Source of the DNA: Sedimentisphaerales bacterium
GTDB lineage: Bacteria; Planctomycetota; Phycisphaerae; Sedimentisphaerales; SM23-30
Reading direction: 5' to 3'
DNA: 64,000 nt
NCBI GenBank assembly: GCA_963663965.2
Contig: CAXXFK010000016.1
Coordinates: forward strand, 1 to 64,000
The notes beneath the pieces are model-generated. The model saw nothing but the letters and a program-made list of their open reading frames with translations. It was not told where the DNA came from and did no database searches. Position numbers and translations under genes: made by a program. Positions within the stretch are counted from its first letter, which is position 1; each line of letters begins with the position of its first letter. This document shows, in pieces, positions 2,584 to 26,488 of this stretch.

Positions 2584-3522
2584 TTATGGTTTCAATTGTT
2601 TCAGATACCACTCAATCGTCCCGGCCAGGCCGGCCTCCAATGATGTCTGGGCACAAAATCCTAAAACGCTCCTGGCTCGCTCAACATTCAGACATCGCCT
2701 CGGTTGACCATCCGGATATCGATTATCCCAGATTATCTGACCCGGATAATTCGTCATTTTTGCGATTTTCTCAGCCAGCGCTTTAATAGAAATTTCCTGT
2801 CCCGTGCCAATATTGACTGGTTCTTTTGAATTATAGGACGCAGTGGCGCCTACAATCGCCCGGGCAGCATCTTCCACATATAAAAACTCACGGGTGGCCC
2901 GGCCTGTTCCCCAACAGACAACCCGATCGGATTTATTCCTGATTCCTTCCACAAACTTCCTGATCAGGGCCGGTATCACATGACTGGATTCCAGATCAAA
3001 ATTATCACCCGGACCATATAAATTCACCGGGATTAAATAAATCGCATTAAAATCATATTCCTCCCGATAGGCCTGACCCTGCACCAGCAGCATCTTTTTC
3101 GCCAGACCATAAGGCGCGTTGGTCTCTTCCGGATAACCATCCCATAACGACTCTTCTAGAAATGGAACCAGGGTATGTTTGGGATACGCACAGACTGTAC
3201 CAACTGTTACAAATTTCTCCACCCCCTTTACCCGGGACTCTTCCATCAGTTGAACACCCATCATCAGATTGTCATAAAAAAAACGCCCCGGATGCGCCCG
3301 ATTGGCTCCAATTCCCCCTACCACTGCCGCCAGATGAATCACCATATCAGGTCCCAGGTCATTCAACATTCTCTGGATATCATTTTGCCTGATCAGATCA
3401 TAGGTTTCATGCTTCACGACCAAAGGGACACATGACCATTTTTCTAACTCCCTGACCACAAACTTACCCAGGAAGCCTTCTCCACCCGTCACGGCAATCC
3501 GTTTATTTTTAAGATGATCCAT
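2584..3522 (-). CDS. fcl: GDP-L-fucose synthase
   Basis: [39 protein letters not shown]. Overlaps the gmd stop. Confidence 0.92.
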
Positions 3523-4521
3523 TACTGATGATCTTTTAAAATCGCTTCCTGCCTGGCTAGCGTCAAATCATACTCTATCATCATTTGTACCAATTCACGG
3601 AATCCCGTGCAGGGCGTCCAGTTCAACAATTTCCTGGCCTTACTGGCGTCTCCTGCCAATTCATCCACTTCCGTTGGACGATAATATCGTGGATCGATCT
3701 CAACATACTCCCGCCAGTCCATATCAAGACATGAAAAGGCCTCATGCAGAAATTCCTCAACAGAATGCGATTCCCCCGTTGCAATCACATAATCATCCGG
3801 ATTGTCTTGCTGCAACATCAACCACATGGCCTCGACATAATCTCCGGCGAATCCCCAGTCTCGGCGTGCCTGCAAGTTTCCCAGATACAATTTATCCTGT
3901 AATCCATACTTGATGCGAGTAGCGGCCCGGGTAATCTTACGCGTCACAAACGTCTCACCCCGGCGTGGCGATTCATGATTGAATAATATCCCATTACAGG
4001 CATACAGGTCATACGCTTCACGATAATTCACCGTCTGCCAGTAACTGTAAACCTTGGCGCAGGCATAAGGACTACGCGGATGAAACGGAAGTCCTCTCAT
4101 TTTGCGGCGGCGGCGTACTGCCGTACATCTCACTGCTGGATGCCTGGTAAAAACGGACCGACTTGCCCAGTTGCCGAACCGCCTCCAGCAGACGCAATGT
4201 CCCCAATCCGTCAATATCTACCGAATAGACCGGCTGATCAAAGCTCACGCGTACATGACTTTGAGCCCCAAGATTATAGACCTCATCCGGCTGGACTTGC
4301 AATAACGCCTGACTCAAATTTCCGCTGTCCGCCAGATCGCCGTATATCAGTTTTAGCCGTGGATTTTCATGCGGATCGATATACAGATGTTCAATCCGAT
4401 GGGTATTAAAACTGGAGGATCGGCAGATAACACCATAGACCTCATAACCTTTGGCCAATAGCATCTCCGCCAGATAGGAGCCATCCTGGCCGGTGATACC
4501 TGTGATAAGCGCTTTTTGCAT
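3522..4521 (-). pseudogene. gmd: GDP-mannose 4,6-dehydratase with one +1 frameshift near 4090 (probably a sequencing error)
   Basis: [13 protein letters not shown] and [12 protein letters not shown] lie in ORF 4072-4521; [25 protein letters not shown] and RDWG lie in ORF 3522-4214. Removing one T from ACTTCCGTTT joins them. Confidence 0.9.
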
Positions 4522-4548
4522 TGATCGAAAGTACTCTCTAAAAGATTT

Positions 4549-5496
4549 TCAGGAACGACCGCGAAACCACGCCATAAATTTCTCCAGACCCTCACGAATC
4601 TCAGTATGCGGTTGATATCCCAACCGTTCCATCGCCTTGGTTACGTCGGCATAAGTCTGTTGTACATCACCCGGTTGCTCCGGTTTGTGATCAACAATTG
4701 CCTTCTTGCCGAGCGCCTTTTCTATCTCCTCAATCAATTTATCTAATCGAACTGGCCGCGACTCGCCCAGATTGTAAATCTCATAGCCTTCACACGCGCG
4801 CATCGATGCCACAATCCCATCAATAATATCATCAATATAAGTGAAATCCCGCCGCATCGAACCATCGCCAAATACCGGTATCGGCCGGCCCTCTTCGATC
4901 AGCCGGGCAAATTTATGGATCGCCAGATCCGGCCGCTGCCGCGGACCATAGACCGTAAAAAAACGTAATCCCGTCACGGCGATATCATAAAGATGATGAT
5001 AGGTATGAGCGATCAATTCGCATGCCTTTTTGGTCGCCGCATAAGGTGAAACCGGAAAATCCACATTATCCGTCTCCGCAAACGGCGCCTTCTTGTTATT
5101 GCCATAGACGCTGGAACTGGAAGCGAAAACAAATTGTTTGATATTAAATTTCCGGCAAGCCTCCAGCAGCACCATTGTCCCGTTAATATTCACATCCTGA
5201 TACCCCAGCGGATCCTCTATCGAAGGCCGCACCCCCGCCCGCGCCGCCAGGTGCACGATCTGATCGATATCCTTCCCCCGGATCGCGGCATCAACGCATT
5301 GACTGTCCCGGATATCACCCTCTACCAGACTGAACCGGTCATAATCTAGCGACACCATCAAATTGTCCCGCTTGATCCGCTCATCATAAAATGGATCGAA
5401 ATTATCCAACCCCACCACCGTATGGCCATCAGCCAACAGCCGCTCACTCAAATGCGACCCAATAAATCCCGCCGCGCCGGTTAATAATACTTTCAT
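4549..5496 (-). CDS. NAD-dependent epimerase, UDP-glucuronate 4-epimerase-like
   Basis: GAAGFIG, HLAARAGVRPS, SPYAATK, LRFFTVYGPRQRPDLA, QPGDV. GAGGA RBS. Confidence 0.8.
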   Translation of the reverse strand: MKVLLTGAAGFIGSHLSERLLADGHTVVGLDNFDPFYDERIKRDNLMVSLDYDRFSLVEGDIRDSQCVDAAIRGKDIDQIVHLAARAGVRPSIEDPLGYQDVNINGTMVLLEACRKFNIKQFVFASSSSVYGNNKKAPFAETDNVDFPVSPYAATKKACELIAHTYHHLYDIAVTGLRFFTVYGPRQRPDLAIHKFARLIEEGRPIPVFGDGSMRRDFTYIDDIIDGIVASMRACEGYEIYNLGESRPVRLDKLIEEIEKALGKKAIVDHKPEQPGDVQQTYADVTKAMERLGYQPHTEIREGLEKFMAWFRGRS

Positions 5497-5528
5497 GATC
5501 AATCCTCAAAATTATCTATGTGACATAT

Positions 5529-5689
5529 GGGTACCTCTAATAATTGCTTTAGAGGCGAAAGCGAGGATGGTTTTTCTCTGGCAAGGAACAAAGAACCGGG
5601 CATATTCGTCAATATTCACGGTTTTTTGTGACGCAGACCAGAGGAAAACCAGGCCGCTTGCAGCCCTGAATGAATTTTTAGAGGTACCC
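5529..5689. mobile_element. 161-bp MITE-like element
   Basis: Terminal inverted repeats GGGTACCTCTAA(T/A)AATT; ATAT on both flanks (5525-5528, 5690-5693); nested internal inverted repeats; no coding capacity. Confidence 0.75.
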
Positions 5690-5769
5690 ATATATGTTAT
5701 AATAACCGACTCATCCAATATTCAAAATTTTACCTGCGTTATCTCAAGAAAATTCACATTGGGATCCAG

Positions 5770-6636
5770 CTACAATCTCCCTGCCAGGTCCTTGATATAC
5801 GCCCGCAAATCTTCGGACATATCCGATCGTTTCAGCGCAAATTCCAGATTCGTTTTGACAAATCCTTCCTTATTGCCAATATCGCACCGCCGGCCTTCCA
5901 GCCGCTTGCCATACATCGCCCGGTCCTTTACCATCATCCGCATCGCGTCGGTCAACTGGATCTCGCCTCCTTTGCCCGGCTGGGTCCGGGCCAGATAATC
6001 AAAAATATCCGGCGTCAGAATATAGCGACTGGCAATCACCAGATTCGAAGGCGCCTCCTCAATTGAGGGCTTCTCGATGAAATCCCGCACCAGAAACAAT
6101 CCCGGATCGATCTCCTTGCCATCCATCACCCCATAGCGGCTCACCATTTCGCGCGGCACTTCTTCCAGTAATGTCACTGGATCTTTATAACGCTGAAAGA
6201 CCTTCATCAATTGTAATGCCGGCGGCACCTCTGCGTCCATTACCGTATCGCCCAGCAAGACCATAAAGGGCTCATCATTCACATGTTGGCGCGCACAATA
6301 GACGGCATCCCCCAATCCCTTTTGTTCCTTTTGCCAGACAAAATGGATATCCGCCATCTCCGAGATCCGCCGCATCTCGGCCAGCAATCCATGCTCCTGC
6401 TTCTCGGCCAGTCTGGCTTCCAGCATGAAGCTGCGGTCAAAATGCTCTTCAATGGCTCGTTTACCGGCGCCGATAATCATCAAAATATCTGTAATGCCGG
6501 CCGCTACGGCTTCTTCCACGACATACTGAATCACCGGGGTATCGACAATTGGTAGCATCTCCTTGGGTGATGATTTCGTCGCCGGTAAAAATCGCGTCCC
6601 GAATCCTGCCGCCGGTATGACTGCCTTACGGATCAT
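5770..6636 (-). CDS. galU: UTP-sugar-1-phosphate uridylyltransferase (GalU family)
   Basis: KAVIPAAGFGTRFLPATK, KEMLPIVD, QKGLGDA, IEKP, GEIQLTDA. ATGA overlap with the upstream kinase. Confidence 0.9.
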   Translation of the reverse strand: MIRKAVIPAAGFGTRFLPATKSSPKEMLPIVDTPVIQYVVEEAVAAGITDILMIIGAGKRAIEEHFDRSFMLEARLAEKQEHGLLAEMRRISEMADIHFVWQKEQKGLGDAVYCARQHVNDEPFMVLLGDTVMDAEVPPALQLMKVFQRYKDPVTLLEEVPREMVSRYGVMDGKEIDPGLFLVRDFIEKPSIEEAPSNLVIASRYILTPDIFDYLARTQPGKGGEIQLTDAMRMMVKDRAMYGKRLEGRRCDIGNKEGFVKTNLEFALKRSDMSEDLRAYIKDLAGRL

Positions 6637-7652
6637 TGGGCCAACCTGCCTTTCGCGGAAACAATCTTTGGTTTGATCACTTCTATCCCGATTCGCTTCA
6701 TTGTCTTTTTTAACTTGCTCAGGGTCTCCTTATCTGGATAGGTCCCCACGATCGCCCCGCCCGATCCAGTAAACTTGGCGCTGCATCCCAGAGACCGGGC
6801 CTGTTCGACCATATCGATATTATCCGGATTGATTGAATAAATCTCGCGACGCTTATCGAAGTTGGCATTGATCAGTTCTCCCACCCGCTGCATATCCTGT
6901 TGTTCCAGACAAGCTTTCATCTCATCGGTGATCGACGCCCAGAATTTCATCGCCTCGACCACCGGTTTCTCGCCCCGGTTGAATCGATCGCGGATATTAT
7001 TATGAAAAACATCTGAAACCTCCGATAATTCCTCCCGATACGCCACAAATAAGGGGGGCAACCAGTCCGGATTCAGGGGCTCATAGTTGCCATGACCACA
7101 ACTGGCCATAAGATCTTTATTAAAATCCATGTAAACCAGACCCTCATATACCTGAATCACCCGATCCTGCAAACCCGCTGAAATATGCAGTTCATCCTTC
7201 TCGGCGGACAGGATCAATCCCGCCTGAACCGGCTTGGGAATCGATACGCCATAAAACGCCATCAATGCCCGCATACAGGCGGTAATAATCGCGCTGGAAC
7301 CCGCCAGTCCTACGCCATGAGGAATATTGGATAAATAACGAATCGTAAAATTATTATCATTCAACTCAATCTGATTTTCATGGCAATAATCGTAAAATCG
7401 CTTCACCGTCGCTTTCAGTAAGCGTATCCCGCCATAATACCCATGCAAATTCACATCCCGCACCAGTTCCCGCACACTCTTGAATTGCGACTGGTCTTTC
7501 TGACACGGCAGAATCTCCAGTTCCGGACTCTCATATAAAACCACTTCTGCGCAGAAATTGCTGAACGCAAAAGAAATCGTTTTGCCAAAATAACCATCCG
7601 ATGGATTGCCGACCAATCCTACCCGGGGATAGGCACGTGTTCTGATTATCAT
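6633..7652 (-). CDS. GHMP kinase, plant-type glucuronokinase homolog
   Basis: GNPSDGYFGKTIS, GYYGGIRLL, IPHGVGLAGSSA, AGLQDRVIQVY, MDF, KFTGSGGA match glucuronokinase motifs as I recall them. Confidence 0.8.
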   Translation of the reverse strand: MIIRTRAYPRVGLVGNPSDGYFGKTISFAFSNFCAEVVLYESPELEILPCQKDQSQFKSVRELVRDVNLHGYYGGIRLLKATVKRFYDYCHENQIELNDNNFTIRYLSNIPHGVGLAGSSAIITACMRALMAFYGVSIPKPVQAGLILSAEKDELHISAGLQDRVIQVYEGLVYMDFNKDLMASCGHGNYEPLNPDWLPPLFVAYREELSEVSDVFHNNIRDRFNRGEKPVVEAMKFWASITDEMKACLEQQDMQRVGELINANFDKRREIYSINPDNIDMVEQARSLGCSAKFTGSGGAIVGTYPDKETLSKLKKTMKRIGIEVIKPKIVSAKGRLAQ

Positions 7653-7661
7653 AGGGCTCCC

Positions 7662-8972
7662 TTAAATCAATACCGACGGTCGGCCGATCGAATGATATTC
7701 GATCCCCTGCTTTTTGACATAACGAGGATCATATAAATTGCGGCCATCAAAAATCACCGGCCTTTTCAACTTCTTAATAATTGACTCAAAATCCGGATTA
7801 CGGAATTCCGACCAGTCCGTAAAAATCACCAGCGCATCAGCACCACCCAGAATAGCATAACTATCGGCGCTTGTTTCGATCAGACCCGGCAATTCTTTTT
7901 CCGTCGCTTCCATCGCCTCTGGATCATAAGCGCGTACTTTGAACCCGGCATCCAGAAACTGCCGGATACAGCGCAGCGCCGGGGCTTCCCGGATATCATC
8001 CGTTCGCGCTTTAAAGGCCAACCCCCAGACAGCCAGGGTCACATCCTGACGTCCGGCGTAATAGTCCAGAATTCGTCGGGCAAACCGGTCCTGTTGATCG
8101 TAATTGGCCTGTTCTACCGCCTGAGCGATCGTCATAGGCGTTTTCACCTGATTCCCCATATAGATCAGCGCCTTCACATCCTTGGGAAAACAGCTGCCGC
8201 CATAGCCAACCCCCGGAAACAAAAACGCGTTGCCGATCCTGCCGTCACTGCCAACCCCCGCGCGAACCAATTCCACATCGGCACCCACTGCGTCACACAT
8301 TTTGGAAATCTCGTTCATAAACGTAATTCGGGTCGCCAGCATGGCATTGGCCGTGTACTTGGTCATCTCTGCCGATATCGGATCCATAAACAATATCCGG
8401 CTGCTCTTGCGCATGAACGGATAATAGAGTTGTTTCATGATTTCCATCACCGCCGGATTCGTCGTTCCGATAATCACCCGGTCCGGCTTCATAAAATCTT
8501 CGACCGCCGCCCCTTCCTTCAGAAATTCCGGATTGCTGACATAATCGAACGGCTGCTCGGTCAGTTCGGACATGATATCCGTCACTTTTTTACAGGTCCC
8601 CACCGGAACCGTGCTTTTCGTCACGATGATCCGATAACCATCCATCATCTCCGCTACCTGCTCGGCCACCGCCAGCACTGCCGAGATATCAGCCGAACCA
8701 TCGTCCGCAGAAGGAGTGCCCACGGCCAGGATAATGATCAGCGAATTATCGACACCTTCCTTCAAATCGGTCGTAAAAACCAGACGGCCGGCTTTATAAT
8801 TGCTTTGGACTATTTCTGTCAATCCCGGTTCATAGATCGGAATCTCACCCTGTTTCAAACCTTCAATCTTCTTCTCATCCCGATCCACACAGATGACATG
8901 ATTCCCGCCATCGGCCAGACATGCCGCGGCAACCAGACCGACATAACCAACTCCCACAACGCATACTTTCAT
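7662..8972 (-). CDS. ugd: UDP-glucose 6-dehydrogenase
   Basis: GVGYVG, KSTVPVGT, SNPEFLKEG, GYGGSCFPKD, WGLAFK, FDGRN. Confidence 0.93.
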   Translation of the reverse strand: MKVCVVGVGYVGLVAAACLADGGNHVICVDRDEKKIEGLKQGEIPIYEPGLTEIVQSNYKAGRLVFTTDLKEGVDNSLIIILAVGTPSADDGSADISAVLAVAEQVAEMMDGYRIIVTKSTVPVGTCKKVTDIMSELTEQPFDYVSNPEFLKEGAAVEDFMKPDRVIIGTTNPAVMEIMKQLYYPFMRKSSRILFMDPISAEMTKYTANAMLATRITFMNEISKMCDAVGADVELVRAGVGSDGRIGNAFLFPGVGYGGSCFPKDVKALIYMGNQVKTPMTIAQAVEQANYDQQDRFARRILDYYAGRQDVTLAVWGLAFKARTDDIREAPALRCIRQFLDAGFKVRAYDPEAMEATEKELPGLIETSADSYAILGGADALVIFTDWSEFRNPDFESIIKKLKRPVIFDGRNLYDPRYVKKQGIEYHSIGRPSVLI

Positions 8973-9031
8973 GACGAATTCCTTATTTTCTCGTATTATT
9001 CCAATTGAGTCATGAATAATACTTCAAAGTT

Positions 9032-10558
9032 TCAATCAATCCCGACCTCATGCTTTTTCTCAATTTTCCAGATAATACCATGCTCTTTTAATTCATAATG
9101 ATCCAGCAAAAACCGGGGCAATGATCCCCACTGTTTATAAAGAACATATACCGGACGGCGACTGATAAGATCTGCTAATATAGCCGGATCTTCCAGCGGC
9201 GAATTCTCATTAAAAACATGACTGGAGTATAATGTAACTCCCGGTTTTTCTCCCAGAACGGTTTGCACGTACCATAAAGTATAAACCGGGGTTGAATCGG
9301 CCAGAATCACTGCGTTGTCTTCCACCAGTCCCATCACCGTCTTTCCATACTGTAACGGGCCATCATACCCGGTCTGCCAGGGCCGCAGAAAATGAGTATA
9401 TTCATTGCGAAATGGAATACTCCGGCGCGTTCCCAACTTGATATTGTATGCCTTGGCGATCGGCGGTACCGCGGCATAAACTCCCACCGGCATCAAACAC
9501 AATAGGACTAATACCCATTTAACGGCAGGCCGGTTAAATCTGGCTAGAAATTGCTTGGCGCCGTATCCAATAACCACTCCCGCTACGCAATAAAATGGAA
9601 TAAAAAAAGCATATCGATCCGGAACCGTATATCGAAAAGCAAACCCATAAAACAGGACTGCCAGCAGCACAATCAATAAATGCCAGCGACTTTCTCGCCA
9701 GTGTCGCAACAACCCCCAAAACCCAGTCAATAATAAAATCAAAGCCGGTGAACAGAAACATAAGCCCAGAAATAAAAAATTCTCGATTACTAGCTTGGGC
9801 GTAATATGATTATTCAAAACTGCCCCCCCCCAGCTATCCCCAAAGGCCGCCGACATGAGAGTGGCGCCCAAGTCACCAGTCGTAAGATATCTATTCACAA
9901 TAAGATATAAATAAATACCCGCGCCGGCCGCCCATAACAATACCGCACCCGGCACAATTCGCCAGGACAATTCTTTTTTAATTAATAAAAATATCAGATA
10001 ACAGAAATAACAAAATAATGGGATCGAGGCAAACATATGATTGGATAATGAAATACCATTCATCAAGGCCAACCAGTAAACATAACAGGTTTTCCGTGTG
10101 GAAATGTACAAATAGAGAAATATCAATTCAGTCATAAAAGTCGCTGAGTAAAGGGTATAATCTTCAGCGATACAACAGTGCTGCCAGAACGTCCAGGATA
10201 ACCCCAGTGCCATAGTGCCGATAACAGCAGCTACAGCAGTTTTTAGCCATAATCTCAATAATAAATATAAGTTAGCTACTGCCACGGCTCCAAAAACCGC
10301 TGAAATCAGATTGATCTTATGAGCATACTCCCCAAATGGAATCGCCTTGGTTGCAATCCCTATGAGGTGATACAAAGGGTGGGCCAGCGCCAGACCAATC
10401 CGGCCAACAATATCGTTATTCCAGATTCGATACTGGTATAATCCGCTATCCTGCCACAGGATACCCGGTGCGCAGGTAAAACCGTATAAAATCAGAAATA
10501 TAGCCAGTACCAGGCTATATTCTCTGAAAATTGGCTGTTTTTGCGTAAAGTCTTTCAA
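9032..10558 (-). CDS. DUF2723/TMEM260-like multi-TM GT-C glycosyltransferase
   Basis: About 11 hydrophobic segments; WQDSG, AHPLY, IAEDY and SNH motifs. TTG start. Confidence 0.7.
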   Translation of the reverse strand: MKDFTQKQPIFREYSLVLAIFLILYGFTCAPGILWQDSGLYQYRIWNNDIVGRIGLALAHPLYHLIGIATKAIPFGEYAHKINLISAVFGAVAVANLYLLLRLWLKTAVAAVIGTMALGLSWTFWQHCCIAEDYTLYSATFMTELIFLYLYISTRKTCYVYWLALMNGISLSNHMFASIPLFCYFCYLIFLLIKKELSWRIVPGAVLLWAAGAGIYLYLIVNRYLTTGDLGATLMSAAFGDSWGGAVLNNHITPKLVIENFLFLGLCFCSPALILLLTGFWGLLRHWRESRWHLLIVLLAVLFYGFAFRYTVPDRYAFFIPFYCVAGVVIGYGAKQFLARFNRPAVKWVLVLLCLMPVGVYAAVPPIAKAYNIKLGTRRSIPFRNEYTHFLRPWQTGYDGPLQYGKTVMGLVEDNAVILADSTPVYTLWYVQTVLGEKPGVTLYSSHVFNENSPLEDPAILADLISRRPVYVLYKQWGSLPRFLLDHYELKEHGIIWKIEKKHEVGID

Positions 10559-10633
10559 TACATCGCTCCTGATTTGACGATAATGTTTTTGTCTCTAATA
10601 ATTTATATATCGACAAATTGCAAATAAGGATAA

Positions 10634-11155
10634 ATGTCTATGACTGAAAATATTTCACAGGATTCGTGTGGTTGCGGGTGTAGCTGTGGTGGACTCGGCG
10701 GGAATAAAAAAGGCGGATGGATCATCTTCCTGCTGGCCCTGGGATTCATTCTTTACGTCATTTTCAATAGTAATACGAAACAATTGAACTGGATTACGGA
10801 CTATCAACAGGGTCTTAAGATGGCACGGGAACAGAACAAGCCTCTTATGTTGACCTTTGTCTCCGATTCCGTTCAATTCTGTCAGGATATGCGAGCGAAT
10901 ACCTATCCAGACAAAGATGTTATCCGTTATGTCACGGATACGTTTATTCCTGTCCTGATCAATGCCGACCAGGAAAAATTAATTTTAGATCAGTATCGAG
11001 ATGAAGTGGATAATTACTATCCTTCTCATGTCATAAAATATGTGGATAAAGCGCCCAGCCGAACGGTCTTGGGATACAAAACGCCTAAAGATTTCATCCA
11101 GAAACTTCAAGAAGCGCTTGCCGCCGTCGACGCGGCTATCCAGGAAGGCAGCTAG
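10634..11155 (+). CDS. Membrane-anchored thioredoxin-fold protein lacking CxxC
   Basis: TM segment then WITDYQQGLKMAREQNKPLMLTF...C..M and FIPVLINAD, typical of the Thioredoxin_7/DUF255-like fold. Confidence 0.65.
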   Translation: MSMTENISQDSCGCGCSCGGLGGNKKGGWIIFLLALGFILYVIFNSNTKQLNWITDYQQGLKMAREQNKPLMLTFVSDSVQFCQDMRANTYPDKDVIRYVTDTFIPVLINADQEKLILDQYRDEVDNYYPSHVIKYVDKAPSRTVLGYKTPKDFIQKLQEALAAVDAAIQEGS

Positions 11156-11233
11156 ACTTCATCTGGGCGCACTCCGTCCCCGTCAGCGTGTCATTTGCCC
11201 ATTTTCAGCATTGAAACGATCGGAACCGATTAA

Positions 11234-11788
11234 TCAAGGTTCTACTGATTCAAGCAGATCGGAGTCGATCTCTACAGCCGCAGCCTGGCCTAACATTTCT
11301 ACGTTGATCACGATTCGGGTAATGTTCTTTTTATGTATCACTATCCCTTCCAAACCCATCAACGCGCCCGCTTTGACCCGGCAGCGAACACCTTCCTTTA
11401 AGTAAGGATGCGGATCGATTGGCGCGTCACAGGAAATGGCCTTATGGATCGAAGCCAGTTCGGTGATCAGGACAGGCTGGTTCGCTACTGGAATCACATT
11501 GGCGATTCGATTAGTTGTCAACGCTTTATAACGATCTTCATCATCGCCATTAAAAAAAAGATAGCCCTTAAACAGTGGCACCAGCGATTTTAATACCCGT
11601 CCCCGGTTCCGGGATACATGAGATACCAAAGGTAAAAAAAAGGGAATTTCCCATTTATGCAGTGACCAGGCCAGGGATTTCTCGTTACGACTTTTCGTAT
11701 GGGCTACCCACCAACACCCCTTATTAATATCCTCTAAAGGGATTTTTTCCGGATAGAGTATCGGGGGATTGTCACTTAATTTCATCAT
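11234..11788 (-). CDS. UpxY/RfaH-type NusG-paralog transcription antiterminator
   Basis: WWVAHTKSRNEK, PLFKGYLF, and a KOW motif (GVRCRVKAGALMGLEG). Confidence 0.85.
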   Translation of the reverse strand: MMKLSDNPPILYPEKIPLEDINKGCWWVAHTKSRNEKSLAWSLHKWEIPFFLPLVSHVSRNRGRVLKSLVPLFKGYLFFNGDDEDRYKALTTNRIANVIPVANQPVLITELASIHKAISCDAPIDPHPYLKEGVRCRVKAGALMGLEGIVIHKKNITRIVINVEMLGQAAAVEIDSDLLESVEP

Positions 11789-11927
11789 GCAAAATACGAT
11801 TCCTTTCCAGGCTTTCTAATCAACGGTACGATCCAGATTCCTTTCCGGTTCGCCGTTCGTAACTACTGAAATAACAATATTATGCACAATATTTTTCAAT
11901 TGCAAATTAAAACTTGGTTTCCCAACC

Positions 11928-12602
11928 ATGAATATACTTGCATTCGTGGCAAAGGTTTATGACAATTCTGGCATGAAAACGGTATACCATGCTGTCAAAC
12001 GTATCTTCGACCTGATTGCGACACTACTACTTCTTCCATTAATCATTATATTTACTGTAGTTATCGCCGTAGCTATTTTGCTTACCGATGGCAGACCCGT
12101 TTTTTTCTCCCAGGAACGTGCTGGAAAAGCCATGAAACCTTTCAAATTATTCAAATTCCGATCTATGCGCGTCAATGCTGATCCTTTCGGTCCCTCACCC
12201 AAAGATGGTGAAGATCCGCGTATTACCCCTGTCGGAAAATGGTTGCGACTTACATCGCTGGACGAACTCCCACAGTTTATTAATGTCTTTCTCGGCCAGA
12301 TGACTCTGATTGGCCCACGCCCCCTGTACATGGATCAGGCCCGGGAATGGAATGAACGCCAGCGCCGTCGACTGGAAGTCAAACCTGGATTAACCGGACT
12401 GGCACAAATCAGCGGCCGTGGCAGCCTCACCATAGAAGAAAAACTCGAACTGGATGTCAACTATGTCGAGCAAGAGAATCCCTGGCTGGATATAAAAATT
12501 CTTTTCGTAACCGCTTTCAAGATCATTGTCCCATCGGATATCTACGAGAAACAATATTCTAAAATGCAAAAAACACGCGGTGACAAGGAGAACGAATCCT
12601 GA
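11928..12602 (+). CDS. Priming sugar (phosphoglycosyl) transferase, PglC/Bac_transf family
   Basis: KRIFD, FKFRSM, DPRITPVG, SLDELPQ, GPRP, KPGLTG. Alternative start at 11973. Confidence 0.9.
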   Translation: MNILAFVAKVYDNSGMKTVYHAVKRIFDLIATLLLLPLIIIFTVVIAVAILLTDGRPVFFSQERAGKAMKPFKLFKFRSMRVNADPFGPSPKDGEDPRITPVGKWLRLTSLDELPQFINVFLGQMTLIGPRPLYMDQAREWNERQRRRLEVKPGLTGLAQISGRGSLTIEEKLELDVNYVEQENPWLDIKILFVTAFKIIVPSDIYEKQYSKMQKTRGDKENES

Positions 12603-17325: not shown

Positions 17326-19578
17326 CTAGGCCTGCTTGGTTTCAGTACCGGATTGCAAAACACCCATCACTGACGGTTCGGATGAAATATAATCATAATA
17401 GGATTCGTAAGTCTTGGCGAAATAACCGCCTTTGCGTGTCTTCACATTATTGAGTAGTATTCCCAGAATCCGGTTATTGCCGTTGGCCGAACGCAGTTCC
17501 CTTATCAAACGCTGGGCCATGCCACGGGCCGTACTTTCCGCGTTGATCACCACGATGGTGCCATCTATGATACTGGCAAAGATTCGAGCATCCACCACAA
17601 TTAATGCCGGTGGGCCGTCCAGAATAATGTAGTCGTAATGATCGCGTTGCTTATCCAACATAGTTTTCATTTGCGGACTGCTGACCAGATCTGCCGGATT
17701 GGGGGGCAATGGACCGCTGAATAGGATATCCAGATTTTTAATCGTAGACTTATACACCACATCGGCCAATGTGGCCTGATTAACCAGCACGTTACTTAAT
17801 CCCTGCTTACTCTTTTCCGTTGGAAACAGTTTACTCAATTTGGGCCGTCGGAAATTGGCGTCAACCAGAAGCACTTTTTTATCTTCTGCCGCCAGAGCGG
17901 TTGCCAGGTTTACCGCGCAGGTCGTCTTGCCGCAACCGGCCGCGCCACTGGTGATTAATATGGTCTTCATCTCCTCAGGCGGCGCACTGAAAATCAGGTT
18001 CGTTCGAATCTGCCGATAAAACTCGCTGATCAAGGCGTTGGGTTGGGTCGCCACAATTTTTTCAACGACATCTCGTGATTTATTGTCCGATTCATACTGC
18101 GGTATCATACCGAGTAACGGAGTATTCAAAAACCGCATGACATCGGTCGGGCTCTTCACCGTATCATCAGCAATTTCCAATAAAAATGCCAATCCCAATC
18201 CCGCCAGTAATCCTAATAAAAATCCGCCCGGCAAAAAGATGCTTTGTTTGGGAAAACTGATGCGGTTGGGTTCTACGGTAATTCCACCTCGTTTTACCGT
18301 AACGGCTTCACTGTTGTTTATTTTTGTATCAATCTCACCAATCCGTTGATTGTATAATTCCACCTGGGTGTATAACCGATCCAGTTCATCTTTGATATTG
18401 AAATACTTTATGGCGTTATCATCCAGTTGTTTCTGGGTTTTCAACGCCCGGTCATATTTGTCGGTGATCTCTGCCAGTTGATTCTGATAGGTGCCCAACT
18501 GATCCTGCAAATTATTATATTCCATCACCGCATATTGATTGACCAGATTATTACGCTGTTCATTCAACTGGTTTTCTGCGACACTGATCAATGCCTGATA
18601 ATCGCGCACCTCGCGATGTTTTTCGCCAAATCGCTCCAACAGTCGATCCCGCTGTTGAATCAGATTGGTGATCTGATTACGCAATCCCAGGATTAATGGA
18701 TCCTGCTCCACTGCCGCCAGCACATTGCCGGAAACCTGAATCTCACCCGTATCATTGGCGCCTGCCTCCAGACGTGCCAGCTCAGATTTCAACGAATTGA
18801 TTTCCGCGTTTAACAACATGATACTCTCATGATACCGGCTGATTTCCTGGGCGACGACCGTGCCGCCGGACTGGTTGGCTCGCCACCCGGCAACGGCCTG
18901 AGTGGACAGAGTATCCATTTCATTTTCTTTGGTTTGAATCTGCTTATTAAACTCAAGAATCTTTTTATTCAATGCATCTTTATTATTAGATAGTGTCTGG
19001 TTCTGAGAAAAGCCCTTGTCATCCAGAAACATTTCAATAATCGTATCCAGAATATCCTTGGCATCTTTCGAATTACCCGCCGTCATGGTAACACGGATAT
19101 ATTTTGTATTTCGCATGGGACGGGCCGAAAACGCATTCTGAAGCTCTTCGTAAAAACTTTTGTGCTTGGGAATCTTATTATACCACGCGGATTCCTGAAC
19201 CCGGCTGTGCCCCAGCACCTTGTTCAGAAAACCCTCCGAAGTCAGATCGGCCGCATAGGACGCGGCGTTCAATTGAATCACATCCTGACGCGGCAACATC
19301 AAGTCTGGACTCAGCAGACTGCTCTGCGGCATTTCGCAGGCAATATAATTCTCCGCCGTGTATTGAGGGGATGTTCTTTTAAGAAACATACACAAGCCGC
19401 CGCCGGCCACGGTAAACAGGATCGTCATCACGACAATCAAAACCAGACGATTACGAATCACCCGGATGAAATCTTTTATCGTAAATTGAACACTGGTGGG
19501 CGCGGACGCCGGATTGGCCGCACCAACGCGAGCGGGTAGTGCCGGCTTTCCGGTCAATACTGTGGGTGCTGTTGACAT
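17326..19578 (-). CDS. wzc: Polysaccharide co-polymerase/BY tyrosine autokinase (Wzc family)
   Basis: Two TMs flanking a coiled-coil; Walker A GCGKTT, LLVDANFRRP, IILDGPP; C-terminal Tyr cluster GYFAKTYESYYDY. Confidence 0.9.
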   Translation of the reverse strand: MSTAPTVLTGKPALPARVGAANPASAPTSVQFTIKDFIRVIRNRLVLIVVMTILFTVAGGGLCMFLKRTSPQYTAENYIACEMPQSSLLSPDLMLPRQDVIQLNAASYAADLTSEGFLNKVLGHSRVQESAWYNKIPKHKSFYEELQNAFSARPMRNTKYIRVTMTAGNSKDAKDILDTIIEMFLDDKGFSQNQTLSNNKDALNKKILEFNKQIQTKENEMDTLSTQAVAGWRANQSGGTVVAQEISRYHESIMLLNAEINSLKSELARLEAGANDTGEIQVSGNVLAAVEQDPLILGLRNQITNLIQQRDRLLERFGEKHREVRDYQALISVAENQLNEQRNNLVNQYAVMEYNNLQDQLGTYQNQLAEITDKYDRALKTQKQLDDNAIKYFNIKDELDRLYTQVELYNQRIGEIDTKINNSEAVTVKRGGITVEPNRISFPKQSIFLPGGFLLGLLAGLGLAFLLEIADDTVKSPTDVMRFLNTPLLGMIPQYESDNKSRDVVEKIVATQPNALISEFYRQIRTNLIFSAPPEEMKTILITSGAAGCGKTTCAVNLATALAAEDKKVLLVDANFRRPKLSKLFPTEKSKQGLSNVLVNQATLADVVYKSTIKNLDILFSGPLPPNPADLVSSPQMKTMLDKQRDHYDYIILDGPPALIVVDARIFASIIDGTIVVINAESTARGMAQRLIRELRSANGNNRILGILLNNVKTRKGGYFAKTYESYYDYISSEPSVMGVLQSGTETKQA

Positions 19579-19604
19579 AGTCGTTTCCTCGTAATTATGA
19601 ACTA

Positions 19605-22600
19605 TTAGTTCGAACTGAGTTCTGTTTTAAGCTTTTGAAGTTTTTCCTGCCATGCCGATCGTGCGACGCCAACGGTCGCCTTGTCAAGCCGATTCAGGGC
19701 GCTCTCGACCTGGACCAGGGCTTCTGTGGCATTCCCTTCACCCTGGTATGCCTGGGCCAGATGATACTCATAATCGATCGGGAATGCGGTTCCCATGGCT
19801 TGATTGTCACGAACGATCTGTAATAGCAATTTCCGGGCAGTCACAAAATCGCCCGTTTTGATCAGGGCCAGTGAATAGGTATCCACCACCTGATCGGAAT
19901 CCTGCCGCAGATAATAAGCCTGACGCGCCAGCGTCAAGGCCTCATCCAGATGAGTGTCCATATTCAATAACGCATAGGCCAGATTGTTTAATACTTCTGC
20001 GCTGGCACGGTCTTTGGGCAGCGATTCTTTTAATTGCCGATAATAGTCGCTGGCCTGACGGTAATTCGAGATGAGCATACTGGAATTTCCCGCCTGCGAC
20101 AGGATTTCCTGACGCATCATTTTGTCCGCATGCTTCAGCGCCTGCATCCATTGATCGTTTTCTTTCTGGTATTCCCCCTGGTGATTATAGACGATCGCCT
20201 GAATCCAATGCCATTCCGGCCGATCCGGTTGCTGTTGCGAAAGTTCTTCTGCCCAGGCCAGTAACGCGGCCGGCTCAGCCGCCTTTCCGACCTGGCCTAA
20301 AATCAAAATACGATCCAGCTCGCTCAGATCGGTGCGATTCAGCAGATTTGTCACCAATTCTAAAGCCTCCGCGCTTTGCTGAGAACGCCCCAGAACTTCC
20401 ACCAGATACAACTGACATTTAAGATTGTCAGGATGGTCCTTCAGAATATTATTTAACAATGTTTTTGCATTGTCAAAATTATCCGTGGCGACCAGAGCCT
20501 TTATCAAGACATCCAGCACCATCATCCGCGCACTGGAGTTTTCCGAAGAGGCCTGATAGGCCTTCTGTAACACATCGATAGACCTGCGGAAATTAAGTTG
20601 CGCGCTTCGGATCGCTTCCTGTTTATCCAGTTCATCGGTCAATGTGGCAATCCGGGCATCCTCCGCCAGCGCCCGATCGAGATAAAAATTACCCATGGCC
20701 ACTTTGAAATCAATTCTATTGGGATTCTTCTCCATCTGAGTGTTATAAAAAGTTTCCAGCTCAGACCAGCGCTCCAAGTGGGTCAGGGTCTGCGTCAGCA
20801 AATACTGGGAGAGGGTATGATTCGGATCTTGATTCAGATTATCTTTCAGCAGACTGATTGCCTGGGCAGTCAGGCCCCGGGTAAGATAGATCCTTGCCAG
20901 AATATAATTCGAAGTCACTGTCTGCGAAGGCGCGACCATGGCCATTTTCTTCGCCGCGGCTTCCGCGGCATCCATCTGATTGCTGTTAAACAGCGCTTCA
21001 CATTTCAACCGCCAGGCCATCGCCTGATTGCTTTCCAGGGCCAGGACTTCATCTGCCATTTTTATGGCGTCTTCATAACGAACCTGCATCATCGCAATCC
21101 GGATCTTCTGTAATAAAATCTCCTTACGAAAGTCCGATCGGTTGGCTTGATATTCCGGGGCAGTTTCCAGCTTTTGCAGAACAGCCATCGCCTGATTGAC
21201 GTCCCGGGCGGCCAGCAGAGCATCGATTTCTCCAATGGCCAGCATTGGACTGTTATTATGCTGCTGGGCAACCTGGTAAATTCGCCGGGCGCGTTCGATT
21301 TCCCCTCGCTTTAGATAGAGTGGACCAAGCTGGATGACCGCCTCGGCATTCCCCGGATCGTCTGTTATGATCTGTTCAAGCTGATCGATGGCGGCCGGGT
21401 CTTTCCCGTTTGTCAGATAGAGCCGGGCCAGATTCATCATCGCCTGCGACTTCGCCTCGCCTTCAGAACGGTCGATCAGATCCTTCAATATCATCTCGCC
21501 CTGCCCGCTTTCACCCTGCATCGCCTTGAATTGTTCATATAATGCGATTATCTGGGGCGCATTGGATTGTTTGGCCAGCGCTTGCTGGAATATTTTTTCT
21601 GTCTCTTTAACGACGGACTCCTGTATCGGGTCCTCCAGTTTTAGATAGGACAGGTAATGCTGTAGAAATGATTGCCAGTAAATCATGCGATCAGGATAAG
21701 TATTCACCAGGTACTGGCCGCGGGCCACGATGTCGCGATGAATATTGTCAATCCGCTGGGTATATAATGCTTTGGTATTCGCGCTTATCAACGGGGATTG
21801 CGCTTCCTGATGCAGCAATTCAATCAAACGGGTGCCATAATGAATATAGATCGAATTCCCGGTCGCATGTGTTGGCGCGACATCCAGAATATGGCCCGCC
21901 AGTTGAAGAATTTCCTGAACCTGCGGCAAGGTTAGCGCGGCGCCCGCCTGGACATACTGCCTTTCCAGCAGAGACGCTTGCATCAGGTTGGCCCGGATAT
22001 AAAATGGATCCAGCGCCAGCAGTTCCCGCAATTGCTTTTCAGCTTCCGAAAAGTTATTGAGCTGATAATTAGCGTTGGCCGCCTTGAATCGTTCATCCAG
22101 ATCCGTCGGTTTCAGGTCAATCAACTTTTCCAGACTGATGAGGGCCTCGGCCCACTCTGCTTTCCCAAGTTGATAATCCGCCCGCAACCGGCGCCCGGTA
22201 TAATCATCTTTCTTTTCAACCCTGGCAATAAGCGATTCGGCTTTCGTCCAGTCCTTGAGTGCGATCGCGGCATAAAACTGTCCCTTTATTCCCTCCAGCG
22301 ATTCGGGTTCCAGCCTGGATAATTCAGCGTACGCCTTGTCCGACAGCACCCAGACTTCTTTGGCCTTTTCATTCAGAATATTCTCATCCCCACTCAGTTT
22401 CACGGCACGGTCGTGATAATAGATGGCCTGCAATCGAATTCTTTCCTTGGGATCCTGAATAGCATTCACTGCCTGCAGATAAATCGCCTCTTGTTCATCC
22501 GGATTGATCTTGGCCGGGTCAGCCACTTTGAGTGTCCGGGCCTTGATCAGGAGCTGCAAATTCCCTGGGTCTGCTTTCAGGGCGCGTTCAATATATTCAG

Positions 22601-24641
22601 ATGAACGCGCATAATCTTTGTTAAGAAAATAATAATCTGCCAGATTCTGTAATATGTCTATGTCGCCGGGATATTTTTCTGCCAGCGCCACAAAGGCCTT
22701 TTCCCGTTCGGACTCTTCCGTCAGCGCCTGAGCTTTCAGAAGATCGATCTGACGATTACTGCCGGTTAATAAACGGATAAGGGTTCCCGCCTCTTCCCGC
22801 CGCCCTGGGATATCCAGCAAGAGACGCGCCTTATAAACCATCATATCCTGATAATAGGGATCGTCGGCCGTATGTGACTTTTCGTAATATTCTGTGATAA
22901 ACGCCAGCAGAATGGCCTGGTTCGTGGAACCTTTGATATCGATCAGCGTGTCAAAAAGCGTTTTGAATCCATAACCGCCCCGGCGTGACAGATCCGACTT
23001 TCTCGCCATGGTTAAAGCCACCGAGGTCTGTCCGTCCCTGGCCAGGCCCAGCGCCAGACGGTAATACAAACGTTGCAATTTCCGGTTACGCTCCACGCCT
23101 TCGGTCAACTCTAATTCCTTGCAGACTTGATATAGTTCCCGAATCCCCTTGTCATAATCCTTCACGGCCAGCGAGATGATCGCCTCGGCAGCCCGGTAAC
23201 TGGGCGCCTTGTCACCCACCGCTTCGCGCAACGCTATCGACAATTCACGCGCCTCTTTAAGATAGGCCTCTTGCTGCGACTTATCCTGCGTGAGCATCGA
23301 TAAGTCAATGTCGGTCTCAATTAAAATCGGCAATACCAGACCCGATCGGATCCCTGACCAGGACACGGCATCCAGTGAACCGCTATCCGGCCAGAGCGAT
23401 CGATAGTATCCCTCTCTTAATAAATCCCGTGCGACCTGAAAATCTTCTTCTGGTTTGGAAATCCATTCCGCCCGGGAAATATAGAGCTGCCCCAGCGCGG
23501 CCTTCCAGAGTAATTCGCTCGGTTCTAACGCCAGGCCTTCTCGGTATAATTCAAAAACCGGTTCAAAATCATCCGGTTTCTTGATCTCACTCAGCAGAAA
23601 CTCCGCTTTCAAAACATAAAACCGGCCATCCTTTGGGAAACGGTCAATGGCCGCGTCAATTTCACGAACGGTCTGGTCCCGCCAACCCTCCAGATTCGCG
23701 GTATTCACGTTGGGCGATGCGCCTTGATTCTGGGACTCGCGCATCGAGTCGTATCGAACAATATAATAGTCGCGAATCAAATTAAACTGAGGTTCAGGAT
23801 CTTCCGGATTGCGAGTCAGCCCCTCTCGATAGGCAGCCTCCGCCTTTTCGTAATAGGACGATTGCTCTTCCTGACTCTTATCACGGGCATTCACCATTTC
23901 CAACGCGCCGCGCAATTTCCACAGCAACGGATCGTTTTCGTTCACTTCTCCGGCTTTAACCAGGGCCGCCTCGGCGGCGTTCCGTGTGCTCTCCTGATTT
24001 TCGGTCGCGTTCATTGCCAGCAATTGGATTTGACTGTCTGCCAGCACAAGATATCCATACCCATCACTCGGAGCCCGCTCTATAAACTGGTTGGCCTGCT
24101 TCTGAATATCCAGCCACTTCGCCGGTTTGCGGTAATATGCCGCCATTTTATATTCAATGGAAAGAATCGATCGTCGCGCCTCAATTTCATCGGGATAACG
24201 CTGGGTAATGTCCGTCCAGACTTTAATAGCGGCTGGAAAATTATAGATCCGCGTCAACAATTCTGCCTTGCGTTTTCGTAACTCCTTGCCGACATCCTTG
24301 CCCTTGGAATACTTCAGGGCCTGATCGATGGTTTTAAATATCTCCCTCCAGCCGTTCGTCCAGTCACCATCATGAAACGCGCGGATTTTTTCATATCTCT
24401 CTTTAACGTCCGGCACGGTGCCTGCTTCTGCCATCAACTCCTTTTCCCGTGATTCGATCTGTTCTACCAAATCTTCCGACTTCTCCTTCAGGACTATCGG
24501 ATCGTTCCCCATCGCCTGATGGATGAATTCCGGCAAAAATGGATATTTGTAATCCACCGCTATCAGAAAAATTGCCAATATGGGCAATCCGATCAGTAAA
24601 AGCAATACCACTAATTTTCGATTCAATTGTTTCTTGGCCAT
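19605..24641 (-). CDS. Giant N-terminally anchored TPR-repeat protein (1678 aa)
   Basis: N-terminal TM; many TPR-like units (ALKADPGN, LLALDPFY); C-terminal EVLNNLAY...DTY. Confidence 0.8.
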   Translation of the reverse strand: MAKKQLNRKLVVLLLLIGLPILAIFLIAVDYKYPFLPEFIHQAMGNDPIVLKEKSEDLVEQIESREKELMAEAGTVPDVKERYEKIRAFHDGDWTNGWREIFKTIDQALKYSKGKDVGKELRKRKAELLTRIYNFPAAIKVWTDITQRYPDEIEARRSILSIEYKMAAYYRKPAKWLDIQKQANQFIERAPSDGYGYLVLADSQIQLLAMNATENQESTRNAAEAALVKAGEVNENDPLLWKLRGALEMVNARDKSQEEQSSYYEKAEAAYREGLTRNPEDPEPQFNLIRDYYIVRYDSMRESQNQGASPNVNTANLEGWRDQTVREIDAAIDRFPKDGRFYVLKAEFLLSEIKKPDDFEPVFELYREGLALEPSELLWKAALGQLYISRAEWISKPEEDFQVARDLLREGYYRSLWPDSGSLDAVSWSGIRSGLVLPILIETDIDLSMLTQDKSQQEAYLKEARELSIALREAVGDKAPSYRAAEAIISLAVKDYDKGIRELYQVCKELELTEGVERNRKLQRLYYRLALGLARDGQTSVALTMARKSDLSRRGGYGFKTLFDTLIDIKGSTNQAILLAFITEYYEKSHTADDPYYQDMMVYKARLLLDIPGRREEAGTLIRLLTGSNRQIDLLKAQALTEESEREKAFVALAEKYPGDIDILQNLADYYFLNKDYARSSEYIERALKADPGNLQLLIKARTLKVADPAKINPDEQEAIYLQAVNAIQDPKERIRLQAIYYHDRAVKLSGDENILNEKAKEVWVLSDKAYAELSRLEPESLEGIKGQFYAAIALKDWTKAESLIARVEKKDDYTGRRLRADYQLGKAEWAEALISLEKLIDLKPTDLDERFKAANANYQLNNFSEAEKQLRELLALDPFYIRANLMQASLLERQYVQAGAALTLPQVQEILQLAGHILDVAPTHATGNSIYIHYGTRLIELLHQEAQSPLISANTKALYTQRIDNIHRDIVARGQYLVNTYPDRMIYWQSFLQHYLSYLKLEDPIQESVVKETEKIFQQALAKQSNAPQIIALYEQFKAMQGESGQGEMILKDLIDRSEGEAKSQAMMNLARLYLTNGKDPAAIDQLEQIITDDPGNAEAVIQLGPLYLKRGEIERARRIYQVAQQHNNSPMLAIGEIDALLAARDVNQAMAVLQKLETAPEYQANRSDFRKEILLQKIRIAMMQVRYEDAIKMADEVLALESNQAMAWRLKCEALFNSNQMDAAEAAAKKMAMVAPSQTVTSNYILARIYLTRGLTAQAISLLKDNLNQDPNHTLSQYLLTQTLTHLERWSELETFYNTQMEKNPNRIDFKVAMGNFYLDRALAEDARIATLTDELDKQEAIRSAQLNFRRSIDVLQKAYQASSENSSARMMVLDVLIKALVATDNFDNAKTLLNNILKDHPDNLKCQLYLVEVLGRSQQSAEALELVTNLLNRTDLSELDRILILGQVGKAAEPAALLAWAEELSQQQPDRPEWHWIQAIVYNHQGEYQKENDQWMQALKHADKMMRQEILSQAGNSSMLISNYRQASDYYRQLKESLPKDRASAEVLNNLAYALLNMDTHLDEALTLARQAYYLRQDSDQVVDTYSLALIKTGDFVTARKLLLQIVRDNQAMGTAFPIDYEYHLAQAYQGEGNATEALVQVESALNRLDKATVGVARSAWQEKLQKLKTELSSN

Positions 24642-24676
24642 ATTCTAAATCGCTCCTGGCGTGCTGAATTTTCAGA

Positions 24677-25441
24677 TTAGTTAAGCGGGTCGCCTGGCGT
24701 AGGGATTTCTGGAAAATGATTCGCTTCCAACAAGGGCACTACTTTTTCACTCATCCGGGTGATTAATCTCAATACCTCTTCCTGGTCGGGTTGCTTCATA
24801 TTGTCTTGAACGGTAAATTCGATTTTGCTGAAATAAGCATATTCGAGTTTGGGATCGTTCAGCTCATAACGAACCTGATAACGGTCATTCATATAAATGC
24901 CGTTGGCATTGAAAAAGTATCCAATCGTGTAATAAACATTCGTGCCATCCGATAACGCTTTCGAAACTTCCAATATTCTGACGGGAATCTTCTCGCCATG
25001 AACAAGAATGACACGGTTGATGGTTTTGTCTTTTTTGTAGCCGCCACCAAGATAACACACGTCGGGAATATGAGGCACCAGGCCCGGATCTCCGGTATAA
25101 TAGGTCACAAATAAATTCGCTCTGGTATAATGATCATCAGGATTGGGCTGGCTGTTCACGATATCCCAGGTGATATATTGCTCCGTTCCCAGTTCTGTTA
25201 ACATCGTCTCGTTATCAATTGTATTTTTATAACGAACCACAAAAGGCTTCAGGGCGTTCTCGTCCAGTTGATCGAGCGGCGCCTTCAGTTCCAGCGGCTT
25301 TTTATTAATATTCCCACCCAGCACGGCGATGGTTCTTTGGATCGAAATGATCCCGATAACCATACAGGCCGCACAGAGTATAAATCCAACATCGGTTGAT
25401 AACCGCCTGCTGACTGTAACTATGTTGAGTTTCTCGGTCAT
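24677..25441 (-). CDS. epsI: Exosortase-associated EpsI-family protein
   Basis: LFVTYYTG...PHIPDVCYLGGG motif; overlaps the exosortase stop. Confidence 0.75.
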   Translation of the reverse strand: MTEKLNIVTVSRRLSTDVGFILCAACMVIGIISIQRTIAVLGGNINKKPLELKAPLDQLDENALKPFVVRYKNTIDNETMLTELGTEQYITWDIVNSQPNPDDHYTRANLFVTYYTGDPGLVPHIPDVCYLGGGYKKDKTINRVILVHGEKIPVRILEVSKALSDGTNVYYTIGYFFNANGIYMNDRYQVRYELNDPKLEYAYFSKIEFTVQDNMKQPDQEEVLRLITRMSEKVVPLLEANHFPEIPTPGDPLN

Positions 25442-26418: not shown

Positions 26419-26488
26419 AAGGTCCTGTTTCGCTGTCTTGGCAATTAGGTAAGATCATGCGGCGAATTAGATTAAACCGTCCTGACAA

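Follow-up and report, generated by a model that had tools for sequence, protein, structure and literature searches.

A glucuronokinase-family kinase coupled to a GalU variant in Planctomycetota: a probable bacterial route of glucuronate salvage

The window analyzed here is a stretch of 64,000 nucleotides from a Sedimentisphaerales bacterium (contig CAXXFK010000016.1 of assembly GCA_963663965.2; genome of 7.24 Mb in 42 contigs, completeness 94.6%, contamination 5.4%). It carries on its minus strand a run of four genes, which in transcription order are ugd, a GHMP kinase gene, a galU-like gene and an epimerase gene. From sequence comparisons, the kinase and the GalU probably constitute a salvage module that would convert D-glucuronate (GlcA) to GlcA 1-phosphate (GlcA-1-P) and then to UDP-GlcA. 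The kinase is orthologous to glucuronokinases, its coupling to the GalU gene is conserved, the two genes co-occur, the sugar pocket of the GalU is altered and Ugd is depleted in genomes that hold the pair. Bacterial GlcA salvage is suggested by the coupling to GalU, by a swap of partner in genomes without GalU and by the scarcity of Ugd beside the pair.

The kinase matches PF00288 (GHMP N) and PF08544 (GHMP C), both above cut-off. The initial annotation, made from the DNA letters of the window, had located the four reading frames correctly and had called the kinase plant-type on the basis of motifs that are all present: GNPSD (residue 15), YFG (21), TIS (25), GYYGG (71), RLL (77), AGLQDRV (159), QVY (167) and KFTGSGGA (293). 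A search of 1.84 billion representative sequences retrieved 525 proteins at E ≤1e-30. Ten of 150 listed relatives were looked up, and two of them, both named by annotation in a comparison set without the assayed Arabidopsis and zebrafish sequences, bear plant or fish names: Ziziphus glucuronokinase 1 (44% identity over the full length, E 8e-89) and the kinase domain of Carassius GKUP (47%, full length, E 1e-101), whose name reads glucuronokinase with putative uridyl pyrophosphorylase. Many close relatives carry the JGI label glucuronokinase, and the nearest named ones belong to Sedimentisphaerales and other Phycisphaerae. The sugar-site motifs GNPSD and GLQDRV are the same as in the plant and fish enzymes, GNPSD being found in 269 of 271 motif matches among the stored relatives, and 10 of 14 residues agree with the Lilium peptide printed in PMC2823444. 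A tree of 58 sequences placed the query with plant, fish and fungal proteins (support 0.998), in a clade that also takes in all the GalU-linked close bacterial kinases. The kinase is thus very probably a member of the glucuronokinase family, as had been proposed from its motifs; profile scores and tree agree on this placement, and a grouping with heptose-7-phosphate or fucose kinases, looked for as the outcome that would contradict it, does not occur.

The Arabidopsis enzyme GlcAK1 (At3g01640, EC 2.7.1.43) has been cloned and is strictly specific for GlcA (PMC2823444, Table 3). In plants, glucuronokinase and UDP-sugar pyrophosphorylase (USP) form the salvage arm of the myo-inositol oxygenase (MIOX) pathway (PMC2823444, PMC6329318). 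The presence of the kinase family in bacteria is already known: homologues in Solibacter, Dyadobacter and Verrucomicrobium were noted in 2010, with, in the parts of that paper available, none assayed and no gene neighbour named (PMC2823444). On the pairing with GalU, no paper was found in a literature search that left most subscription journals outside. The literature base further comprised bioRxiv 10.1101/2020.11.30.405621, PMC9875253 and PMC11868170.

In the window, the stop codon of the kinase gene overlaps the start codon of galU (ATGA, 6633-6636), and the kinase gene follows ugd after a gap of 9 bp that contains a Shine-Dalgarno-like stretch; both had been read correctly at the outset. 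The linkage between kinase and galU, for which a survey had been suggested, is kept across several phyla. In the named genomes (Planctomycetota, Verrucomicrobiota, Fibrobacterota, Spirochaetota, Bacteroidota and others), galU lies directly behind the kinase gene in 25 of 29 loci; two of these 25 share one assembly. Among metagenomes, counted on the best 80 of at least 533 confirmed loci, a GalU-type gene adjoins the kinase gene in 60 (47 behind, 13 before); 9 loci with both sides visible have none, and the remaining 11 are of insufficient length. A natural fusion of a GalU-like domain to the kinase is represented by one JGI protein (P0140), and of 72,556 plasmids a single one, from Rufibacter tibetensis, bears the kinase gene, with galU behind it.

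The pair of kinase and GalU is what is conserved, and only closer relatives show all four genes in order. No ugd was found within the flanks of the 29 named-genome loci and none of these has the four genes in order; an epimerase gene follows galU in 2 of them. In the metagenomic set, ugd lies directly upstream of the kinase gene in 6 of 80 loci (68-77% identity); 9 loci have an epimerase gene of at least 60% identity behind galU, and the full host order of four genes recurs in 5. The four-gene operon described in the initial annotation was thus rejected as the conserved unit.

Variants of this arrangement were also encountered. In four genomes of one family (L075-L078), a regulator that reads from sequence as sigma-54-type follows the kinase gene and galU is elsewhere. 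Two loci (L060, 451-2373; L061, 451-2394) encode a different GHMP kinase, with the motif GEHSDW, fused to a GalU-like domain in a protein of about 640 aa that may serve, in parallel, to salvage a different sugar; similar long frames occur in 12 of 28 kinase-bearing genomes, two of which were examined.

The association was assessed at the level of whole genomes in 201 evenly drawn Planctomycetota genomes that were at least 90% complete, the host included. GalU is present in 24 of them, protein and profile searches agreeing, and the kinase family, by profile, in 37. Both are found together in 22 genomes, whereas GalU occurs in 2 of the 164 genomes without the kinase; one of these (G185) has a GalU with canonical residues, and in the other (G199) the end of a contig cuts galU on the side where the kinase gene would lie. 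In 11 of these 22, the kinase gene adjoins the GalU gene. As these genomes are related and not independent, we give counts and do not rely on Fisher tests. A replicate in Bacteroidota was uninformative (kinase in 1 of 151 genomes, the one at the centre of the sample; GalU in 2 of 151).

Thirteen of the 15 kinase genomes without GalU were examined (G034 and G072 were left out). In 11 of these, a nucleotidyltransferase resembling that of fish GKUP is encoded right behind a more distant kinase; the other two have, respectively, the kinase at a contig edge and no nucleotidyltransferase neighbour. A GalU or a GKUP-like partner accompanies the kinase family in 33 of 37 genomes. In these 11 planctomycetes (L255-L265), the nucleotidyltransferase is 27-33% identical to the fish domain in ten, and the eleventh matches the bacterial relative only; their pair is recognizable as a split bacterial form of the animal fusion. 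The annotation had pointed to that fusion as a parallel to the host pair. The fusion does exist, yet its nucleotidyltransferase domain is not GalU-like: GalU was rejected as its origin for lack of a significant match (E 1.2).

GalU is not the general source of UDP-glucose in this phylum. Ugd is present in 170 of the 201 genomes, mostly without GalU, which indicates that in most of the phylum another enzyme supplies the substrate of Ugd. A PF01704 pyrophosphorylase is found in 176 genomes, including that of the host, and UDP-glucose in planctomycetes without GalU may come from a PF01704 enzyme of the UAP-like type or from an RmlA-like enzyme. How most planctomycetes make UDP-glucose without GalU is a question raised by these counts.

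We considered whether the GalU itself differs from the canonical enzyme. It had been described as a paralog, which does not hold: neither tblastn nor searches with PF00483 and TIGR01099 found a second housekeeping galU in the host genome, and the four other PF00483 matches are distant (25-26% identity or without a tblastn match). Since it is the sole galU, any special role has to be argued from the pattern across the phylum. We aligned 138 distinct GalU-like proteins, each covering at least 240 residues of the query; shorter pieces, including those of one plasmid and one spirochaete locus, were left out. The host protein keeps the ten catalytic, magnesium- and uridine-binding residues (G11, R15, K25, E26, Q102, G107, D130, G169, E188 and K189) that correspond to the activity residues of Klebsiella UGP (G17, R21, K31, E32, Q109, G114, D137, G179, E201 and K202; PMC11796359), and the kinase-linked GalUs generally keep all catalytic residues. 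The difference lies in the sugar pocket. The residue following the magnesium-binding aspartate is Thr131, and position 202 is occupied by alanine. The combination of Thr or Ser at 131 with a small residue at 202 was observed in 75 of 79 kinase-linked GalUs and in all 15 GalUs whose kinase lies elsewhere in the genome, as compared with none of 35 controls, made up of 10 named canonical GalUs and 25 spirochaete GalU-like proteins (without a kinase in their locus, the rest of those genomes not being searched for one). Of six GalUs from genomes that had initially been classed as lacking the kinase, five also carried it, and searching by profile then revealed a divergent kinase next to each of the five. 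In these genomes (L228-L232), the kinases have GNPTD, and QDQ or QDA in place of QDR, and lie behind the signature-bearing GalU; they may act on another sugar.

At the position of Thr131, P. aeruginosa UGP has a glucose contact, D131, whose replacement by alanine leaves the enzyme nearly inactive, and the equivalent contact in B. subtilis YngB is D134. The acidic glucose contact following the magnesium-binding aspartate is thus not found in the host GalU, a trait that is not universal in the family. Two other residues were considered and rejected as diagnostic: Arg250, invariant in the 79 linked GalUs but shared by 7 of the 10 canonical and 19 of the 25 spirochaete proteins, and Asp110, present in 67 of 79 linked GalUs, yet also in 5 of 25 spirochaete proteins. 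A Trp224 mutant of RmlA reportedly accepts GlcA-1-P. Arg250 was paired with this Trp224 through a motif-based alignment; the Trp224His mutant has a broader substrate range (PMC9415975).

A clear Ugd (E ≤1e-100) was found in 6 of the 22 genomes with kinase and GalU, as compared with 164 of the 179 others. A wider search for nucleotide-sugar dehydrogenases in the 16 negative genomes revealed a probable Ugd in four (one a fragment at a contig end) and unclassified dehydrogenases in three, and nine had TviB/WecC-like proteins only or nothing; among these nine is G063, a single contig that is 99% complete. Among 28 other kinase genomes, 20 have an Ugd-like match (E ≤1e-60), indicating that both routes to UDP-GlcA often coexist, as in the host. 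The depletion is in keeping with a pair whose product is the same as that of Ugd, but kinship and incomplete assemblies could inflate it.

Taken as a GlcA salvage module, the pair would operate as follows. Free GlcA, released when uronate-rich glycans are degraded or when the cell turns over its own polysaccharide, would be phosphorylated at C1 by the kinase at the expense of ATP, and the translationally coupled GalU variant would then convert GlcA-1-P and UTP to UDP-GlcA. Loss of the acidic residue at position 131 would leave the invariant Arg250 free to bind the C6 carboxylate. In the host, the module and Ugd would be two routes into one pool of UDP-GlcA and UDP-galacturonate (UDP-GalA) within a polysaccharide-export locus; in some relatives the module may be the sole route to UDP-GlcA. 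We infer the substrates of both enzymes and the direction of flux, and the GalU may still use Glc-1-P as well. A wider reading, which we put forward tentatively and rate as somewhat doubtful, is that GlcA salvage is widespread in bacteria, that a GalU lineage was re-tuned to a dedicated UDP-glucuronate pyrophosphorylase (EC 2.7.7.44) and replaced Ugd in part of Planctomycetota, and that the kinase family took on two or more nucleotidyltransferases of unrelated origin as partners, including the one seen in the split form of the animal fusion.

Several observations weigh against the assignment of the pair to GlcA salvage. The GalU clears the canonical galU cut-off (352.1 bits against 326.8 for TIGR01099), is about 50% identical to B. 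subtilis YngB, as read off the alignment, and is the genome's only member of its family, next to an Ugd that requires UDP-glucose. Klebsiella and E. coli GalU have a valine at 131, and the Klebsiella enzyme tolerates change there (PMC11796359), so that Thr131 does not exclude the use of Glc-1-P; Ala202 adjoins the backbone contact Ile201 and is not the contact itself. With the signature columns removed, the linked GalUs form one clade of weak support (0.84), which also contains two long-branch fusion proteins, and the signature may thus mark ancestry rather than function. It is also found beside the divergent GNPTD/QDQ kinases, which do not have Arg164. Plant and Aspergillus UGPases use GlcA-1-P poorly (PMC12203929), and in fish GKUP the kinase is active and the pyrophosphorylase domain almost inactive (PMC3938481). 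The literature search, with the limits given above, found no assay of a bacterial glucuronokinase. With supports of 0.04 and 0.32, the inner nodes of the kinase clade do not firmly place the query among the plant and fish enzymes. In the phylum survey, the surveyed genomes are related and mostly incomplete assemblies, adjacency was not found in 11 of the 22 co-occurring genomes (some at contig ends), and the wider dehydrogenase search narrows the Ugd gap. The PF01704 enzyme of the host resembles a UDP-GlcNAc pyrophosphorylase and is thus no obvious alternative source of UDP-glucose.

The pair could be a real salvage module that handles one or more other sugars, such as galacturonate, 4-O-methyl-glucuronate, another uronate or a neutral sugar. 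We consider this unlikely. The assayed enzymes do not bracket the bacterial subclades of the kinase, PHGVG in the query takes the place of the PRQxG of the plant and fish enzymes, the GalU signature is shared with the divergent kinases, and a promiscuous xylose salvage of the galactokinase/GalU type has been published in bacteria (PMC11267548). The 4-epimerase would connect UDP-GalA and UDP-GlcA in either case. Yet GNPSD and GLQDRV recur unchanged in the plant and fish enzymes, and the Arabidopsis enzyme rejects galacturonate, galactose, glucose, xylose and arabinose (PMC2823444). Furthermore, Ugd and the epimerase are the neighbours in closer relatives, and it is Ugd that is depleted alongside the pair.

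It is also improbable, in our estimate, that a genuine glucuronokinase is paired with an ordinary UDP-glucose enzyme, GlcA-1-P being used by another protein such as the PF01704 pyrophosphorylase. This would agree with the presence of a sole GalU in the host and of a single GalU match in 13 of 28 related genomes, with a score above the galU equivalog cut-off, with ugd in the same gene run, with the frequency of PF01704 enzymes and with a kinase genome (G025) that has no GalU match. It would leave unexplained that no GalU turned up in 177 of the 201 genomes, the majority of which have Ugd, that 22 of the 24 GalU genomes have the kinase, that 11 genomes without GalU have another nucleotidyltransferase beside the kinase, and that, in the sets compared, only GalUs associated with a kinase carry the pocket signature.

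The last alternative, that the kinase belongs to another GHMP family (heptose-7-phosphate, fucose, galactose or mevalonate) and resembles glucuronokinases superficially, draws on weak NCBIfam and Protein Data Bank (PDB) matches, on automatic Atlas cluster names (heptose 7-phosphate kinase family) and on an AlphaFold2 model (64 sequences, pLDDT 94) with a GHMP fold whose listed matches are general GHMP kinases (12-19% identity) and include no glucuronokinase, but it is largely refuted and very improbable, because every such profile score is far under its cut-off (HddA, NF049969, 40 bits against 600; Fkp, NF009948, 21.9 against 721, the query being a single 339-aa kinase without guanylyltransferase; mevalonate kinase, 54 against 163; galactokinases, at most 37) and the best PDB sequence match (E 1e-7) compares with 44-47% identity and E <1e-88 for glucuronokinases.

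The nearest known systems share some traits with the pair and differ in others. Like the plant system, the host has a stand-alone orthologous kinase with the same sugar- and ATP-site motifs, a Ugd route alongside and the same proposed chemistry. It differs in that USP has about 600 aa, whereas the second step is here proposed for a GalU-family enzyme of about 290 aa, in that the two genes are translationally coupled and in that MIOX was not found (control genomes were blank too). With zebrafish and Xenopus GKUP it shares a kinase domain (47% identity) tied to a short bacterial-type nucleotidyltransferase, but what is a fusion in animals is two separate genes in the host, and the split counterpart of GKUP itself is found in the other planctomycetes described above, not in the host. 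The GalU resembles E. coli GalU, YngB and K. pneumoniae UGP in passing the family cut-off and keeping the ten residues; it differs by Thr or Ser after the magnesium-binding aspartate, Ala at 202 and mostly Asp at 110, a type that in this phylum is almost confined to kinase genomes. Bacteroides Fkp and Solitalea GalK/GPUT (cited in PMC11267548) also combine an anomeric GHMP kinase with an NTP-sugar pyrophosphorylase to make nucleotide sugars for surface glycans from free sugars, but with kinases of other families and other sugars (fucose and xylose, respectively; the query scores 22 bits of 721 with the Fkp profile).

Glucuronate could be provided by degradation of glycans. The host genome has one GH115 match, 26 GH2 matches and a uronate isomerase, and the GH115 and GH2 matches bear out its description as a glycan degrader; GH67 has no match. 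MIOX has no match either, which shows little, the control genomes being equally blank. GlcA is probably scavenged rather than made by MIOX, and free GlcA would be split between catabolism and salvage.

If the proposed function is correct, the pair would give bacteria a route from free glucuronate to UDP-glucuronate for which the literature searched offers no precedent. Glycan degraders could then build uronic acids into the polymers of their own surface with no need of an NAD+-dependent oxidation, and galU annotations in these phyla would be mis-assigned. The linked GalUs are candidates for a dedicated UDP-GlcA pyrophosphorylase, a step that the fish enzyme barely performs in vitro. Enzyme cascades for UDP-GlcA and hyaluronan currently use two Arabidopsis enzymes, which the small bacterial pair could replace. 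The presence of the pair in a cultured soil bacterium, Rufibacter tibetensis, makes the proposal easy to test.

The features of the locus are collected in Table 1. Contigs from two runs of one sample, which may be the genome's own source, are identical to the window over 6269-9200. No RNA data set is listed among the sequencing runs that contain the sequence.

Table 1. Position of the kinase-GalU pair and of neighbouring features in the window
Feature	Positions	Strand	Details
UDP-glucose 6-dehydrogenase Ugd (de novo UDP-GlcA route)	7662-8972	-	436 aa; top PDB matches are named UDP-glucose dehydrogenases, E 1e-129
Glucuronokinase-family GHMP kinase, core of the putative module	6633-7652	-	339 aa
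GalU-family uridylyltransferase, Thr131/Ala202 kinase-linked variant, core of the putative module	5770-6636	-	288 aa
Extended SDR, probable UDP-glucuronate 4-epimerase, downstream UDP-GlcA user	4549-5499/5502	-	Pfam Epimerase
Palindromic multi-copy intergenic element, MITE/REP-like, outside the module	5525-5695	.	21 genome copies
gmd, broken by a frameshift	3522-4521	-	frameshift near 4080-4100
TMEM260-like multi-pass membrane glycosyltransferase	9032-10558	-	immediately upstream of ugd
NusG-family (UpxY-like) regulator	11234-11788	-	
Wzc-like protein, 1678-aa repeat-rich protein, exosortase and Wza-type exporter, framing the locus	17326-28015	-	

The product of the last gene of the run is a probable UDP-glucuronate 4-epimerase. 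Its best PDB matches are 5u4q (E 3e-91) and 6zl6 (E 4e-63), whose deposited names are silent on function and which we take to be UDP-uronate 4-epimerases. The sugar-binding residues of this group are poorly conserved (PMC7984243).

The polysaccharide locus that surrounds the module also holds a sugar transferase, further nucleotide-sugar genes, an exosortase and a Wza-type exporter; the name of the Wzc-like protein is a reading from its sequence, Pfam showing a P-loop domain only. A NusG-like gene directly precedes the kinase gene in one other locus (L008). The broken gmd may be a pseudogene or reflect an assembly error, and the read-derived contigs did not reach it; a second gmd (73% identity) is present on another contig (C28). 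Promoter and terminator scans gave counts near chance (21 versus 14.2 and 14 versus 8.6, respectively), and an Rfam scan of 3400-12000 gave no match, the palindromic element included. This element, of about 170 bp, had gone unnoticed in the initial annotation and lies in the 270-bp gap between galU and the epimerase gene. It folds as a single long hairpin (-74 kcal/mol, z -9.8), and its copies, itself among them, were counted at 80% identity or more (80-100%) over at least 140 bp.

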